DNA from: an uncultured Rivularia sp.
Lineage (GTDB): Bacteria; Cyanobacteriota; Cyanobacteriia; Cyanobacteriales; Nostocaceae
Direction: 5' to 3'
DNA length: 64,000 nucleotides
NCBI GenBank assembly: GCA_963665115.1
Contig: OY762007.1
Location: forward strand, 160,001-224,000
Positions within the stretch are counted from its first letter, which is position 1; each line of letters opens with the position of its first letter. The translations under genes and the position numbers were made by a program. The notes below the pieces were generated by a model. That model saw only the letters and a program-made list of their open reading frames with translations, was not told where the DNA came from and did no database searches. This document shows positions 35,060 to 44,575 of the stretch, in pieces.

Positions 35060-36695
35060 TTGCAAAACATCAGGATGCTACCCCTTCACCCGATTTCAGA
35101 TTTCATCGACACTAATTCTAAAATTAATAATCAAAATCCTACTTATTACTATCAAGGCTATTCTAATGGCGAATTATTACAACTTCCGCGCACTCCAGAA
35201 GCAGAATTAATCGCTTGTAGTTTAATGCAACAACTTGCTAATAATGAAATGTATTCCCGTGAAGGTAAAATGTACGGGATTTTATTAGTAGAATTAGCAA
35301 ATGGCGAAAAAGGAATACTCAAAGCTTTTTCGGGATTGCTGAATGGTAAGAGTATTATTGAAGGTTGGGTACCACCGATTCCCGGTAGAGAAGAAGTTGT
35401 ATTAGAAGAAACTCGCACTTTAGCAGAATTGGAAGCTATTAAACAAGAAATTATTCAGCTTAGACAATTAACCCAAAGAAAACAATATGAAACTGTAGCG
35501 TCAGAATTTGAACAACGCTTGCGAGAAATGGGTAAATTTCATCAAGTTAGCAAACAACAACGCGATGAAAAACGCCAGTTATTTGACAAAAATCTAACGG
35601 AAGAAGAATTAAATATAGAGTTAGAAAAACTTAAAGAAGAAAGTCGTCAGCAAGGAATTGAGCGAAAGTTACTCAAACGACAGCGCGATGAGGTATTACA
35701 ACCGCTTCAACAAGTAATTGATCGTGCAGATACACGGATTCGAGAATTAAAGCAGCAGCGCAAACAAATATCCCGCAAACTGCAAGCGCAGATGCATGAG
35801 GCTTATTCGGTAATGAATTTTCTGGGCAATTCATCGAGTTTGCAGCAATTAATGCCCCAATTACCCACAGGTACGGGCGATTGTTGTGCGCCGAAATTAC
35901 TTCATTATGCTGCGATTAATAAATGGAAACCCTTGGCGATCGCCGAATTTTGGTGGGGAGAATCAACTCAAGATAAGATACCCGGAGAATTCTACGGTGC
36001 TTGTGTCGAGCGCTGTCAGCCGTTGATGGGTTTTTTATTATCGGGTATTAATTTAAGCCCAATTCCGATTATTTATCAAGATGAATGGTTGATTGCAGTG
36101 AATAAACCATCCGGTTTGCTATCAGTACCGGGAAGATATCATCATAATCAAGATAGCGTTGTCAGTCGCTTAAATAGTTTATTACTATTACCTGATGGCG
36201 AAAAGATCGCAGCGGTACATCGATTAGATATGGATACTTCTGGTATTTTACTATTAGCAAAAGATAAAGAAGTTTATCGTTTATTAAGCAAGCAGTTTGA
36301 ACAAAGGCAGGTTAGCAAAAATTATGAAGCAATACTTTCAGGTAATCTAATTGCTAACAAAGGAACGATTGAACTACCACTATGGGGAAATCCCGAAAAT
36401 CGTCCTTATCAAGAAGTGAATTACCAATATGGTAAGCCTTGTATAACTAAATTTAAAGTTTTAAATCAAGAAGGAAATTACACTCGCATTGAGTTTATTC
36501 CTTTGACGGGAAGAACTCATCAATTAAGAATTCATGCTGCTGATACCAATGGTTTGGGTATACCTATTTTAGGAGATAAACTTTACGGATGCGATTTAGT
36601 TGCAAGTCGGCTGCATCTTCACGCCAGAGAAACTTTCATTTGAGCATCCGTATTTGAAAGAAAAGATATCTTTGAAAGTAGAAGTGCCGTTTTAA
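35060..36695 (+). CDS. rluA: RluA-family pseudouridine synthase with N-terminal extension; +1 frameshift near the 3' end (~36630)
   Basis: 'NKPSGLLSVPG', 'VHRLDMDTSG', 'TGRTHQLRIH', 'ILGDKLY'. Removing one A restores LHLHARELSFEHPYLKEKISLKVEVPF*. Confidence 0.9.
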
Positions 36696-38483: not shown

Positions 38484-39116
38484 ATGTACGGTGCAAATCC
38501 AAACGAAAAACATCCGATGAAGGGATTTCCGCAAATCTGTTTTATCAAAAATACAGTATCAAATCCAAATATAATTATTGGTGACTATACTTATTACGAT
38601 GACTTAGAAGATTCCGAGAATTTCGAGCGTAATGTTCTCTATCACTTCCCTTTTATTGGCGATAAATTAATCATCGGTAAATTTTGCGCTTTAGCTACAG
38701 GTGTAAAGTTTATTATGAATGGCGCAAATCATAAAATATTGGGTTTTTCTACTTATCCTTTTCAAATATTTGGTAATGGGTGGGAAAAAGTAACACCGCA
38801 GCCGGGGGAGCTTCCTAATAAAGGCGATACTGTAATTGGTAACGATGTGTGGATAGGTTATGAAGCGGTAATTATGCCGGGAGTTAAAATTGGTGACGGA
38901 GCAATTATTGCATCAAAATCTGTTGTTACTAAAGACGTTTTGCCGTATAGCGTAGTAGGTGGAAATCCGGCGAAAGAAATTAAAAAACGCTTTGCTGATG
39001 ATGTTATTGAAAAGTTGTTAGAAATTGCCTGGTGGAATTGGGATATAGAGAAAATTACCCGTAATTTAGACAAAATTGTTGGCGGTGATATTGAAGCTTT
39101 GAAAGGTTGTAATTGA
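38484..39116 (+). CDS. Vat/CatB-family xenobiotic O-acetyltransferase (hexapeptide repeat)
   Basis: 'IGDYTYYDD', '[10 protein letters not shown]', 'NGANH..GFSTYPF', 'IGNDVWIG', 'VVGGNPAK', 'AWWNW'. Confidence 0.92.
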
Positions 39117-40608: not shown

Positions 40609-40920
40609 TCAACTACTAACTATAAACTCAAATGGTTTGCCAGGTTTCTTCGGTTCCCATCCTGCTTTAATTGCTTGATGTATCCATGATGCAACTTCCG
40701 AAGGTACAACTGGCTTAACTTCAATTGTAGCCCAATCTTTGGAATGTGCTTTATCAGTCATGATTACTAATTTTGAAGCAGATTCTTCAGCGTGTTCGAC
40801 TGCAACATTTAAACCAATCCCGTAACCAGTTTGAGAATAAGTCGCTTTTCTTCTAATCAACCAGATGAAATTTTCTCCATCTACGGTTATTTTTCTCGCG
40901 CCTTTTTTTGGTATTCCCAT
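40609..40920 (-). CDS. Hypothetical protein (103 aa)
   Basis: ATG ORF co-oriented downstream of the SPFH gene; 'RKITVDG..FIW', 'PSEVA.WI..AI..GWEP'. Confidence 0.75.
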   Translation of the reverse strand: MGIPKKGARKITVDGENFIWLIRRKATYSQTGYGIGLNVAVEHAEESASKLVIMTDKAHSKDWATIEVKPVVPSEVASWIHQAIKAGWEPKKPGKPFEFIVSS

Positions 40921-40985
40921 AGTTATTATTTCTCTATTAATTGATGGAGACGTAGCACTGCTACGTCTCTACATTTTGTTTACAA

Positions 40986-42581
40986 CTAACTCCGATTAAT
41001 CTGAATCAAATCTGTCAAAATACTATCTAAACTGCCGTTAACTTGAATTCTTTCAATTTTTTCGGAAATCCTTTCTAATACTTCTAACTCTTTCAATCTC
41101 AAAGCAACGGGGTTATCTTCCATTACTCTGGCTGTATTCAACATACTGCGAGTTGCAGCAGTCTCTTCTCTCCGCCGTACTACATTGGCTTGGGCTGATT
41201 TCTCGGCTTCTACAACTTTGCTCAAAATAGTTTTGATTTCCCCAGGTAGAATAATGTCTTTGACTCCTACCGAATCAATTTCTATTCCGTATTCTGCTGC
41301 TTTGGGACGAATATATTCGGCAATACTAATATCAATTGCTCCTTTATCTTCTAATAGTTCATCTAAAGTTTTTTCACCTACGGCAGCACGTAAAGCAAAC
41401 TGCAATTCTTTGTACAAATAACCAATGAAATCTGACAATCCATTTTTTGCTCTCAATGCATCTTGAATCCGGAAACCAGCAGTTAAGTTCAAACGCAGAG
41501 GTACTTTATCTTTCGATAAAATATCTTGTCCGGAAACCTCCATGTTTTGCAAGCGCAAGTCAATCACTTCACTTTGGAAAGAACGTCCAAACACCCACCA
41601 TGCATGAATTCCCGATTCTAGTTGTGCTTGAAATTCTTGGTTTACATACAGCAAACCGATGTGTTGAGCGGGTACTTGGCAAACGTGCAAAGAATAACGA
41701 CTCAAGCTTACGGTTTCTGGTAAACCCGATATTAATTCAGCTACCTTGGCGGGTGACAATTTAGCATCATTACTAATATCGATAATTTCGACATCAACAC
41801 CCTGCCAAAACAACTTGCGGCTAGTAGGAGGTAATATCGAAATTACTTTACCTTGATACCTCACAATTGCAGTTTGTTGAGTAAGGGTTTGTGCTGTCTC
41901 GCAGTAAGCTGCAACAAATTCAGGATGTCTCTCAATCAAGACTTCTTCAAGGGGAAAGTTTGGATTATGCACCAGACGACTCATTGCATAATAGGTAATT
42001 TCTTTATCTATTGCCCAAAAAGCATATTCTCCAGGCTCAAGAGGACGCACAAAGTTATTTTCAACGTACAATAAACCGATTTCATATTCTTTAACTAAGA
42101 TTTTCTTTAATCCACTAAAATTAAATCCACGCAGTTGCTGCACGAATTGAGTGGGCAATTCTAAACTTTCTTCTAAGTTAAAGATATGCGATTCTACTTC
42201 AATAAAACCACGCCAAAATGCTCGGAGTTGATTTGGTAAAACGTTTATCCATCGCTGCCCCAATCGTACTAAAGCAGCTTGATTAAAATTGGTACGTACT
42301 ATTAATAGATGTTCTTCTAATTCTGCTGCATTATCTCTTAATAATAATTCGAGGTTTTCAATATTGGCTTCCGGCTGTTTTAAATCAAAGGTTTCAACTC
42401 GCCAATATCTACCGAAATAAGTATAGGTTCCAGAAGTTAGAATCTTCTTAAAATCGCTGCGGTTATACAAAATCCCGATTTCACCGGGTTTAATATAGAA
42501 AGTTTTCCACATAGGTATTTTTATAGATAGTTGAGGTAATTTAGGCAATCGCAATCGAGAGAAAAATCTTGATAGAAACAT
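40986..42581 (-). CDS. Slipin-type SPFH/band-7 protein with N-terminal repeats
   Basis: C-terminal SPFH core 'DLR...EVSGQDILSKDKVPLRLN', 'QFALRAAVG..TLDELL', 'GVKDIILPG', 'RREETAATRSMLNTA', 'NPVALRLKELE'. Alternative start MWKTF at 42512. Confidence 0.92.
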   Translation of the reverse strand: MFLSRFFSRLRLPKLPQLSIKIPMWKTFYIKPGEIGILYNRSDFKKILTSGTYTYFGRYWRVETFDLKQPEANIENLELLLRDNAAELEEHLLIVRTNFNQAALVRLGQRWINVLPNQLRAFWRGFIEVESHIFNLEESLELPTQFVQQLRGFNFSGLKKILVKEYEIGLLYVENNFVRPLEPGEYAFWAIDKEITYYAMSRLVHNPNFPLEEVLIERHPEFVAAYCETAQTLTQQTAIVRYQGKVISILPPTSRKLFWQGVDVEIIDISNDAKLSPAKVAELISGLPETVSLSRYSLHVCQVPAQHIGLLYVNQEFQAQLESGIHAWWVFGRSFQSEVIDLRLQNMEVSGQDILSKDKVPLRLNLTAGFRIQDALRAKNGLSDFIGYLYKELQFALRAAVGEKTLDELLEDKGAIDISIAEYIRPKAAEYGIEIDSVGVKDIILPGEIKTILSKVVEAEKSAQANVVRRREETAATRSMLNTARVMEDNPVALRLKELEVLERISEKIERIQVNGSLDSILTDLIQINRS

Positions 42582-42639
42582 TTATAGGAAGAAAGGGAAT
42601 GGGTAATTGGTAATAGGTAATTGTTTTTAATTATTTGAG

Positions 42640-43122
42640 TTTCAACCGCCGGATTATGCACCATCCTTAACTTGTAGTACGTATGCTACGCAATAAAGTC
42701 AAAACTCCGCAAATGCAAGCGCTGATATGATTCCATAGCGGGCAAAAGCTTCTCAGTAACTGGATTAAGAAAACTGTTGTCTTATCTTAAATTACCCGAA
42801 GGTAATCCAAAATCATCAAACAATTCTCAAATATGAGGTTCGCTTTTTCTTTCCAGAATTTCCAGAGAAAAACTGAATCGAGCCAATGAAGCCCATACTC
42901 AATTTAAGGAGAAAACAATTGCTCTAGCTACTTCACCATCACTACCGAATGTTAACAAGTAACAAACAATTGCAGGCACTTACATTGCGGAGTTTGCCTC
43001 TTGCGAAGCATTTGTTGGAATTACGCCCCCCTGTTTCGATCTCTCGAACATCGGGAACCTTTCTAGCAAGGAGCTTAGGAGCGTTATTGCAGATTGTTCT
43101 GACTACCGTGACAGGGTAGGGT
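42640..43122 (-). ncRNA. Putative large (~480 nt) structured ncRNA; boundaries approximate
   Basis: 20-bp long-range helix 42995-42976 / 42722-42702 with two U-G wobbles that work only on the minus strand; C(UUCG)G hairpin at 42791-42806; GAGA tetraloop hairpin at 43032-43050; no ORF in the track. Confidence 0.7.
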
Positions 43123-43124
43123 GT

Positions 43125-43199
43125 TGGTTGAAAGTACAGGAATTGAACCTGCTAATCATAGATTATGAGTCTATTGCTCTACCAGTGAGCTAACTTCCG
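43125..43199 (-). tRNA. tRNA-like gene, anticodon CAT, C1:A72 mismatch, encoded CCA
   Basis: CGGAAGT TA GCTC ACTGGTA GAGC A ATAGA CTCATAA TCTAT GATTA GCAGG TTCAATT CCTGT ACTTTCA A CCA (75-nt cloverleaf). Confidence 0.85.
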
Positions 43200-43201
43200 G
43201 G

Positions 43202-43273
43202 TGCTTAATGCAGGAATCGAACCTACGAATGATAGATTTAGCGTCTATTGCTTTACCACTTAGCAAATTAAGC
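43202..43273 (-). tRNA. tRNA-like gene, anticodon CTA (amber) with non-canonical G33
   Basis: GCTTAAT TT GCT AAGTGGTAA AGC A ATAGA CGCTAAA TCTAT CATTC GTAGG TTCGATT CCTGC ATTAAGC A (72-nt cloverleaf with a perfect 7-bp acceptor stem). Confidence 0.8.
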
Positions 43274-43275
43274 TG

Positions 43276-43365
43276 TTGAAATAGTTTCAAGTTGTTCGCG
43301 GTATACGCTTTAAGCATTGCTCGGCGCACCAGTCGGATATACAGAATCCGAACTATAGCGAAGCT
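43276..43365 (-). ncRNA. Small structured leader RNA ahead of the tRNA-like genes
   Basis: Minus strand TTCGC...GCGAA closes the hairpins TCGGAT-N7-ATCCGA and GAGC-AAT-GCTT; then TTGAAA-CTA-TTTCAA. Confidence 0.5.
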
Positions 43366-43379
43366 TTACTATTACCTCA

Positions 43380-43412
43380 CTACAAATGTAGCACATTAAA
43401 ATACAATGGCAA
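43380..43412 (-). promoter_or_regulatory. Sigma70-type promoter with a palindrome overlapping the -10 box
   Basis: Minus strand TTGCCA (43412-43407), 16-nt spacer ending TGC, then TACATT (43390-43385). Palindrome CTACA-AA-TGTAG at 43380-43391. Confidence 0.6.
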
Positions 43413-43564
43413 GTTTGGTTGGTGTTGGGGCGTAGGGGAGACGTAGCAGTGCTACGTCTCTACATTCATTTTCGTGATGCAATTTAGGGAAGGAATTACA
43501 GTCAACGTTTTTTTCTTGATGATAGATAAGTTATAAATATTGCGTAGTTTTCTAATTCGATGGC

Positions 43565-43795
43565 GTGAAAATATTTTGCAAACAGAGTTTAATCTCGATA
43601 TTTAGATTAGTAATTTTACTGTCTTTAGTGAAACCATCTTTAGCGAGAGCAGATGTTTTACCGCCGGAAGAAGAATATATAGAATCTTTGAAAAACAATA
43701 AAGCCCTTATTTTAGTTACGCCGATTTTGGGGGTTTCTTTAATTGCTGGGGTTGTGTATTGGAAAAAATCAAAAAATGTGAAGAAAGATGAATAA
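43565..43795 (+). CDS. Short signal-peptide plus C-terminal TM protein, paralogous to the ends of the next gene
   Basis: KQSLISIF..KPSLARADV and PI.G.SLI.G..YWKK are shared with 43901..44575. Confidence 0.65.
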   Translation: MKIFCKQSLISIFRLVILLSLVKPSLARADVLPPEEEYIESLKNNKALILVTPILGVSLIAGVVYWKKSKNVKKDE

Positions 43796-43900: not shown

Positions 43901-44575
43901 GTGAGAATATTTCGCAAGCAGAGTTTAATCTCAATATTCCCTTTAGGAATTTTATTGACTTTATTTAAACCATCTTTAGCACGAGCAGATGTTGTAACTC
44001 CAGGTATGAGCCGTGTAAGATATTGTTTCAAAATAAATAATATTGATAAATATCCAGATCATTTGTTTTTAGTAATGAGAAAGTATGAAGGTCCTGGTTA
44101 TCCATCAAATGAGTTATTAAAATCGGGAAAATGTGTGGATTTGAGTGGTTATCGAGAATATGCTGAAGTTTATGCATTAAAAAAATCAGATATTAATTTA
44201 CAAGAAGACATAGTTTCAAATCAAGGAGGTGATGAGTTAAAAGATTTTGAAAGCAAAAAATCTAAATTAATTACCGCTACAAGGAAAATTCGTCCTATCA
44301 GAAGAATGAAGGATGTTTATCAAATAGCCAGAGTAGCTCAAGCTTATGAAATATCCGAAATTAACAATAGGGATTTAAGCTTGAGAAGTAGCTCAATTAC
44401 TTATTTTTACAAAAATAACAAATCGGAAACAAAAGCTTATTCTGATGGAGACAAGTTTCCATTGCCTTCAAGCAAGAATACAGCTTTCCTCTGGTATATG
44501 CCAATTTTTGGAATCTCTTTGATTAGCGGGGCTGCTTACTGGAAGAAATTAAATAAATCTAACAAAGGCGAATGA
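43901..44575 (+). CDS. Secreted protein with C-terminal TM anchor
   Basis: Signal peptide ending ARA-D, two Cys in the mature part, C-terminal TM followed by basic residues. Confidence 0.8.
   Translation: MRIFRKQSLISIFPLGILLTLFKPSLARADVVTPGMSRVRYCFKINNIDKYPDHLFLVMRKYEGPGYPSNELLKSGKCVDLSGYREYAEVYALKKSDINLQEDIVSNQGGDELKDFESKKSKLITATRKIRPIRRMKDVYQIARVAQAYEISEINNRDLSLRSSSITYFYKNNKSETKAYSDGDKFPLPSSKNTAFLWYMPIFGISLISGAAYWKKLNKSNKGE

Follow-up and report, generated by a model that had tools for sequence, protein, structure and literature searches.

What kind of system is formed by a run of structured RNAs and tRNA-like genes leading into a gene for a slipin, a Band-7/SPFH protein? The question is raised by a locus on the minus strand (43412-40986) of a 64,000-nucleotide stretch of an uncultured Rivularia sp. 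(GenBank assembly GCA_963665115.1, contig OY762007.1, positions 160,001 to 224,000), referred to here as the window. A promoter-like site, a leader RNA, two tRNA-like units, a linker, a structured core RNA and a second promoter-like site precede the slipin gene; the RNA-encoding part is called the cassette below. The locus is very probably a stress-induced module of RNA plus protein, and it is likely best read as a cyanobacterial variant, detached from RtcB, of the predicted Band-7/b7a-tRNA system for RNA repair. An earlier note on this DNA had proposed a conserved noncoding RNA-SPFH module tied to translation stress or RNA repair, which is now supported by conservation, covariation, co-occurrence, two proteobacterial rtc operons, and published TrcR and microarray data.

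Most parts lie where that note had placed them. The promoter-like site P1 (43378..43412) consists of a -35 hexamer TTGCCA (43412-43407) and, 16 bp further, an extended -10 element TACATT (43390-43385), which is overlapped by a palindrome (43393-43378). It is followed by a leader RNA of about 105 nt (43275..43378), where the note had seen a small structured RNA and where compensatory pairing agrees with it. Next come tRNA-like unit 1 with a CUA anticodon (43200..43273) and unit 2 with a CAU loop (43122..43199, including an encoded CCA), matching RF00005 at 57.7 and 59.5 bits, the latter at 43199-43125. The slipin gene (40986..42512, 508 amino acids) carries the Band_7 domain (PF01145, E 3e-31). 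The single structured RNA of about 480 nt described between the units and the gene does not hold up, because the strong fold is limited to a core RNA of about 295 nt (42702..42995), the sequence at 43124-42996 is an unremarkable linker, and 42712-42673 is promoter-like. The variable linker (42996..43121) folds at a z-score of -1.15 and holds a small conserved hairpin (43119-43103), and the region behind the core is a predicted internal promoter, P2 (42673..42712), with a TrcR-type box. The idea of one promoter for the whole block is not supported either, as this conserved second promoter-like element sits behind the RNA.

Against Rfam 15 (E of at most 5 for the window and at most 0.05 for four relatives), the tRNA-like units match above the cut-off, as the note had suggested checking, while leader and core match no family and give only tRNA and sub-threshold hits. 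GOLLD, ROOL, and OLE are included in this release.

Three elements make up the leader: a stem that closes it, a hairpin (43349-43335) whose loop of 9 nt is T-loop-like, and a GGUGCGC/GCGUAUACC helix; by its sequence, the hairpin loop resembles a T-loop with two extra bases. On its own the leader folds at a z-score of -1.77. Among 34 cyanobacterial copies, both-sided changes occur in 17/33 pairs, with 93% paired compared to 26-44% when slid, and among 30 copies including proteobacterial and GC-rich metagenome loci, 9 of the 18 pairs are changed on both sides, the observed value of the pair-count measure being reached by 21/500 shuffles. A covariance model of the leader finds a match in 21/22 slipin-bearing genomes and in 0/23 others, the one miss being a genome with a shorter, 41%-identical slipin. 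In locus L108 (G089:C99), which has no leader-model match, a shorter slipin type follows an RNA-like region of another kind, which is duplicated and contains fragments of tRNA.

The core (fold at 42995-42700, z-score -5.45) has a long closing helix, a side hairpin, a long stem with conserved internal loops, and a three-way junction in which CUUGAGUAUG and UCUUAAUCCAG are conserved. In 26 full-length sequences, pairing reaches 92% over its 103 pairs (13 helices) versus 37-43% when slid, and 50 pairs show both-sided changes; these counts come from alignment A4, which excludes the variants lacking the side hairpin and from which the structure itself was drawn. The covariation that the note expected upstream of orthologous slipin genes is thus found in both leader and core. 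An all-against-all covariation scan is dominated by phylogenetic noise, and no pseudoknot is claimed.

The relatives compared here are the best 80 of 503 slipin loci in the genome collection, and the leader and core sequence profiles were built from 36 of these 80 loci plus the window. The closest named slipin loci are from Rivularia sp., with 97% identity. The core is found upstream of 78/80 slipin loci, missing in L019, which has 170 nt upstream, and in L070; the leader is found upstream of 75/80, missing in the same two and in L030, L064, and L071, three of the five having less than 720 nt upstream. Conservation upstream of orthologous slipin genes, on which the note's proposal depended, is therefore observed, and the RNA block always lies upstream of and on the same strand as the slipin gene. 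Of 401 evenly sampled cyanobacterial genomes, 22 encode the slipin protein (E 1e-60). A blastn search with one core gives 19 real matches and two chance ones of 26-27 bases; 18 of the real matches are in slipin genomes. The 19th (L113) has no intact slipin, but the 3' half of its core is fused to the last codons of one; the RNA without slipin or a slipin remnant was not found in the leader-model and core searches. These conservation and co-occurrence counts overstate significance, since the kin are not independent.

The tRNA-like units look, by their sequences, like mimics with a preferred loop rather than decoding tRNAs. A census of 132 units in 73 upstream regions gives 16 anticodon calls, CAU accounting for 84/132, and a base other than U33 in 35/132. 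The usual loop, CUCAUAA, is present in 82/132 units and is also the loop of the genome's CAU tRNAs, whereas unit 1 of the window has the loop CGCUAAA with G33. Its CUA anticodon, which the note had pointed out, is better seen as local drift, because CUA occurs in this one unit of 132. An amber suppressor or tRNA-Pyl was rejected, as it needs a conserved CUA with U33. Unit 2 of the window has 1:72 unpaired and an encoded CCA; among relatives, 1:72 is unpaired in 60/74 and CCA encoded in 61/74, and the 3:70 pair and the discriminator are variable. A further, degenerate T-arm module follows the units in 17/81 upstream regions; the window has no such module.

The promoter-like elements suggest how the module might be controlled. 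At P1, the extended -10 motif TG(C/T)TAnAnT is kept in 90/91 orthologous leader copies, although by itself such a site is not above chance (3 found versus 8.9 in shuffles). The P1 palindrome resembles the trcR autoregulatory site; it is found in the window and 10/91 copies, and 95 such sites occur genome-wide. P2 has a -35 hexamer TTGCGG (42712-42707), which is also the 3' strand of the core closing helix, followed after 18 bp by a -10 hexamer TAGCAT (42688-42683) within a palindrome (42690-42673). In 47 of the 65 copies that could be scored, a TTGCAG-like hexamer, likewise the 3' helix strand of the core, precedes a TAGTAT-like hexamer by exactly 17 bp, and a TrcR-type box stands behind 83/102 core copies, compared with 6% in shuffles. 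P2 is thus a putative internal TrcR-repressed promoter, with a TrcR-type box overlapping the -10 element upstream of the slipin gene as in the TrcR regulon. The exact published trcR motif stands 31 nt before one open reading frame (ORF) of the genome, which by motif alone is a candidate trcR. TrcR-type boxes were found before one rtcB and before the tRNA array of the genome, an 11-gene array (G000:C1:2709880-2711354) with four such boxes in its promoter region, and none before Ro60 or the second rtcB.

In Anabaena PCC 7120, TrcR has been described to repress the trn array, rtcB, and alr0739-alr0740, the latter a slipin, by binding TGTAGTAT-like sites over -10 boxes (PMC10272220). According to the same source, deletion of trcR raises alr0740 42-fold, alr0739 72-fold, and rtcB 77-fold, TrcR binds the alr0739 promoter, and the transcriptome analysis excluded long non-coding RNAs. 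The slipin of the window resembles alr0740, which is an orthologue by annotation, gene order, and length (1527 nt in both), and the two genomes share TrcR-type boxes or TrcR control at the slipin gene, rtcB, and tRNA array. They differ in that this locus has no YdeI gene, alr0739 being YdeI (PMC9938897), and in that the available text of the TrcR-regulon descriptions (PMC10272220, PMC8421152) does not mention the RNA cassette. The supplement of PMC8421152 lists alr0740, and a text search of its main text finds neither Band 7 nor SPFH. In a microarray study, no feature changes more than the intergenic probe alr0738_igFwd (log2 -2.41), which moves together with rtcB, the L-array, alr0739, and alr0740 (PMC9938897 Suppl. 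Table 2). In L097 and L101, a YdeI gene separates the core from slipin, indicating that this probe probably covers the cassette. One marine metatranscriptome contains a 778-nt contig of a close relative that spans 42598-43345 at a depth of 173, versus 16-43 for slipin contigs; neighboring genes are covered too (depth 36-127), so this says nothing about transcription.

Burroughs and Aravind had already predicted in 2016 that a Band-7 protein is paired with a tRNA-like RNA, called b7a-tRNA, beside RtcB, as cited in bioRxiv 10.1101/312249, which describes b7a-tRNA as lacking experimental validation. The window locus shares with that system the Band-7 gene after an adjacent tRNA-like RNA, and homologous leader, mimics, and protein are found in rtcR-slipin-rtcB operons. 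The Burkholderia and Photobacterium loci have the order rtcR, leader, tRNA-like units, slipin, rtcB, with RlaP next in Burkholderia; rtcB lies next to the slipin gene in relatives L085 and L086, and a Pseudomonas SPFH gene sits inside the rtc locus (PMC13086221). The window, in contrast, has no adjacent rtcB or rtcR, and its control appears to be of the sigma-70/TrcR type rather than the sigma-54/RtcR type. It has two mimics, a leader, and a 295-nt core, the latter two and the doubling being absent from the system's description as available in bioRxiv 10.1101/312249, and a 508-residue slipin with five repeats, where many distant relatives have about 375 residues. As rtcB is not adjacent, we file the locus as a variant of the Band-7/b7a-tRNA system and not as a strict member. 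The note was right that neither rtcB nor Ro60 is in the window; the genome does encode them, rtcB at 2.25 and 8.45 Mb and Ro60 about 2.9 Mb away from the cassette locus, itself at 0.20 Mb.

A second known system, Ro60/Rsr with its Y RNA (YrlA), likewise pairs an RNA that mimics tRNA with a protein likely to form rings, in the context of RNA repair. Here the partner is an SPFH and not a TROVE protein, Ro60 is distant, and its locus has no leader-model match. YrlA identity was rejected for the RNA (22 bits versus a 69-bit cut-off, Ro60 not adjacent).

In 11/22 distant loci, 7-20 tRNA genes lie within at most 3 kb upstream, which often makes the cassette the last element of a tRNA array and may be the physical counterpart of the co-regulation with the L-array in Anabaena. 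These are GC-rich metagenome contigs (L189, L195, L196, L199, L200, L201, L206, L207, L208, L209, and L212), and an AAA ATPase follows the slipin gene in L189, L192, and L207. No description of leader or core was found in the literature searched, a search that leaves most subscription journals outside. Nor did this search turn up the folds of leader and core, the layout of P2 with TrcR, the wall of SPFH1 repeats, or the link to tRNA arrays.

SPFH proteins are known to form oligomeric rings and cages. The structure model of the window's slipin (predicted local distance difference test score 78.5; 90.2 for the repeats alone) shows five beta repeats of the SPFH1 type (residues ~1-320), followed by an SPFH2 domain and by helices at the C-terminus, without a hydrophobic segment (maximum 19-residue hydropathy 0.86). 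Repeats 1, 3, and 5 match one another by profile, as do repeats 2 and 4. The top seven matches of the first repeat are SPFH1 domains of prohibitin, erlin, HflK/C, QmcA, and stomatin (Z 4.6-6.6), and the fifth repeat aligns with the SPFH1 subdomain of stomatin. A Foldseek search with the repeats alone gave no clear fold. The predicted architecture is parallel to that of the vault particle, with no membrane segment and tandem small beta repeats followed by an SPFH domain and a long helix. The whole model matches the major vault protein (E 7e-13 over 581 columns), a match owed to the SPFH part; the repeats by themselves, possible homologues of those of the vault, match SPFH1 subdomains best and the major vault protein weakly (Z 3.0, E 5e-3). 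From its family, the slipin may form a ring or cage; a complex prediction with three copies of the repeat region scored 0.30, against a mark of 0.42, and counts neither for nor against this. A conserved N-terminal extension from the upstream in-frame ATG at 42581 was rejected, as it is stop-interrupted or out of frame in 34 of the 58 relatives having it.

Taken together, these parts suggest a mechanism. Ribosome stalling would likely release the cassette from TrcR repression, and P1 would give a precursor of about 680 nt. RNase P and 3' nucleases might cut this at the tRNA-like units, freeing the mimics and the 295-nt core, while P2 could allow separate induction of the protein and of genes inserted behind the RNA. 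The slipin would oligomerize like other SPFH proteins and bind cassette RNA, and the predicted ring would hold damaged tRNA or rRNA for an RtcB ligase encoded elsewhere. We put forward this whole chain, from TrcR derepression through RNA processing to a slipin ring staging RtcB repair, as tentative, possible rather than probable. A bolder version, in which a soluble, vault-like ribonucleoprotein cage with a wall lengthened by SPFH1 repeats packages the tRNA-mimic RNA and the 295-nt fold for tRNA and rRNA repair, with a retron-type reverse transcriptase (RT) hooked on in some Nostoc, is speculative and on balance unlikely.

Several points weigh against the reading as an RtcB-detached repair module and its mechanism. 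RNA processing, RNA-protein binding, and the ligation role are proposals reached by inference only, and with rtcB not adjacent, the link to RtcB is by regulon only. The TrcR-type box at P1 is present in only 18/91 copies, so the RNA may escape TrcR control in most Nostoc. The microarray change was only suggested by its authors to be caused by erythromycin (PMC9938897), and that the probe reports on the cassette, beyond a mere 5' untranslated region, is probable from gene order. Related sequences can outdo a shuffle control without any structure. The module is patchy, found in 22/401 cyanobacterial genomes. Core homology is not detectable at the same position in the GC-rich loci or the two proteobacterial loci, so the core is not a universal part of the module; the core was searched by sequence profiles and blastn and not by a covariance model, and distant homologues may escape. 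It is detectable out to L105-L107, L183, and L187, and among 28 distant loci its profile matched only L181, L183, and L187. The GC-rich loci carry another long helix-rich domain (~250 nt) in the core's position, and a profile of this post-tRNA domain matched no cyanobacterial core. L191 and L193 keep the same leader and have, in the 1.4 kb before slipin, a post-tRNA domain of yet another, third type, which is duplicated in L193.

The constant upstream, same-strand position of the block could also mean that the RNA works purely in cis: it would be a long regulatory leader, responding to uncharged tRNA or to the state of the ribosome and gating read-through into slipin and inserted genes. The T-loop-like hairpin of the leader would fit such sensing, as would the insertion of unrelated genes (YdeI, an L-PSP protein, RT) right behind the RNA. 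However, the promoter-like element behind the RNA means that the slipin gene need not depend on the block, the distance from core to ATG in relatives ranges from 41 to 1493 nt, the mimics retain full cloverleaves and mostly encoded CCA ends, and no ORF of at least 60 amino acids lies between the upstream ATG (42581) and 43550, shorter leader peptides not having been searched for; we consider a purely cis role unlikely. Alternatively, the RNAs alone might serve under stress as decoys for tRNAs or as spare ones, such as a charged CAU unit or an anticodon-nuclease sink, with the slipin merely co-regulated. Their shared loop with the genome's CAU tRNAs and the cassettes ending tRNA arrays in distant bacteria fit this, and 23/26 L-array tRNAs are aminoacylated in Anabaena (PMC8421152). 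The many anticodons, the frequent loss of U33, and the variable discriminator and 3:70 pair do not, nor does the fact that the RNA was not found apart from slipin or its remnant, which leaves this explanation quite unlikely.

A retron-like system, with the cassette as its template or primer RNA and the RT lost from this genome, is suggested by 12/80 loci in which an intact type XIII retron-like RT with YADD/YVDD, VTG, and NAxxH motifs sits between the two copies of a duplicated cassette (L036, L042, L046, L047, L049, L050, L059, L060, L069, L072, L076, and L026) and by RT fragments in 12 further loci. As in type XIII retrons, this RT stands directly behind an RNA, here the core, starting about 10 nt behind it in 11 of the 12 loci; it is N-terminally shorter than the profile, matching from near position 100 of 469. 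However, no such RT is found in this genome (best match 25% identity over 210 amino acids, elsewhere), and neither the 13 closest loci nor the distant ones (L181-L213) have one; the RT has repeatedly eroded while RNA and slipin remain intact. With RT missing from this genome, we see it as an add-on of some lineages, and there is only a slim chance that the cassette is basically a retron. That the block is what remains of a decaying tRNA array next to a stress gene is barely credible: odd anticodons, the degenerate unit 1, and the patchy distribution would agree with decay, but the order of parts is identical across distant bacteria, and the compensatory changes in leader and core largely refute it.

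For the module read as a variant Band-7/b7a-tRNA repair system, the locus offers two uncatalogued RNA folds with defined ends and a predicted two-promoter layout. The earlier printed prediction of the Band-7/tRNA-like pairing limits the surprise. As the orthologue in a tractable cyanobacterium is induced 42-fold by deletion of the repressor, the question of an RNA-loaded SPFH cage is directly testable.

Duplication and insertion are common around the cassette. Two cores are present in 18/80 loci, and in most RT loci the first ATG of the RT overlaps a TrcR-type box and the second cassette copy keeps one tRNA-like unit with an odd loop. Genes of the YdeI/OmdA or endoribonuclease L-PSP families lie between core and slipin at L097:770-1348, L101:882-1472, and L033:3006-3578; both families are listed in the Anabaena TrcR regulon table (PMC10272220).

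The outer limits of the block differ from those first drawn. The repetitive extragenic palindromes (REPs) at about 40945-40972 and 43437-43463 are present as described, but their role as brackets of the module was rejected in favor of an incidental position: the genome has 162 exact copies and about 322 sites with at most three mismatches, and among the 13 closest loci a REP lies downstream only in 3, upstream only in 4, on neither side in 6, and on both sides in none. The left end at 40609 is too far out, as the 103-amino-acid ORF at 40609-40920 (minus strand) is not a member of the module, its relatives being confined to 11/84 loci, all among the 12 closest. It matches no Pfam or NCBIfam family, and its look-alikes are all hypothetical proteins.

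Elsewhere in the window, a gene resembling Vat-family streptogramin A acetyltransferases, above the NCBIfam cut-off, is encoded on the plus strand at 38484-39116, near an RluA-family pseudouridine synthase (35060-36643). Two plus-strand ORFs without a Pfam or NCBIfam family, at 43565-43795 and 43901-44575, are alike at both ends, and the shorter resembles a copy of the longer with an internal deletion.

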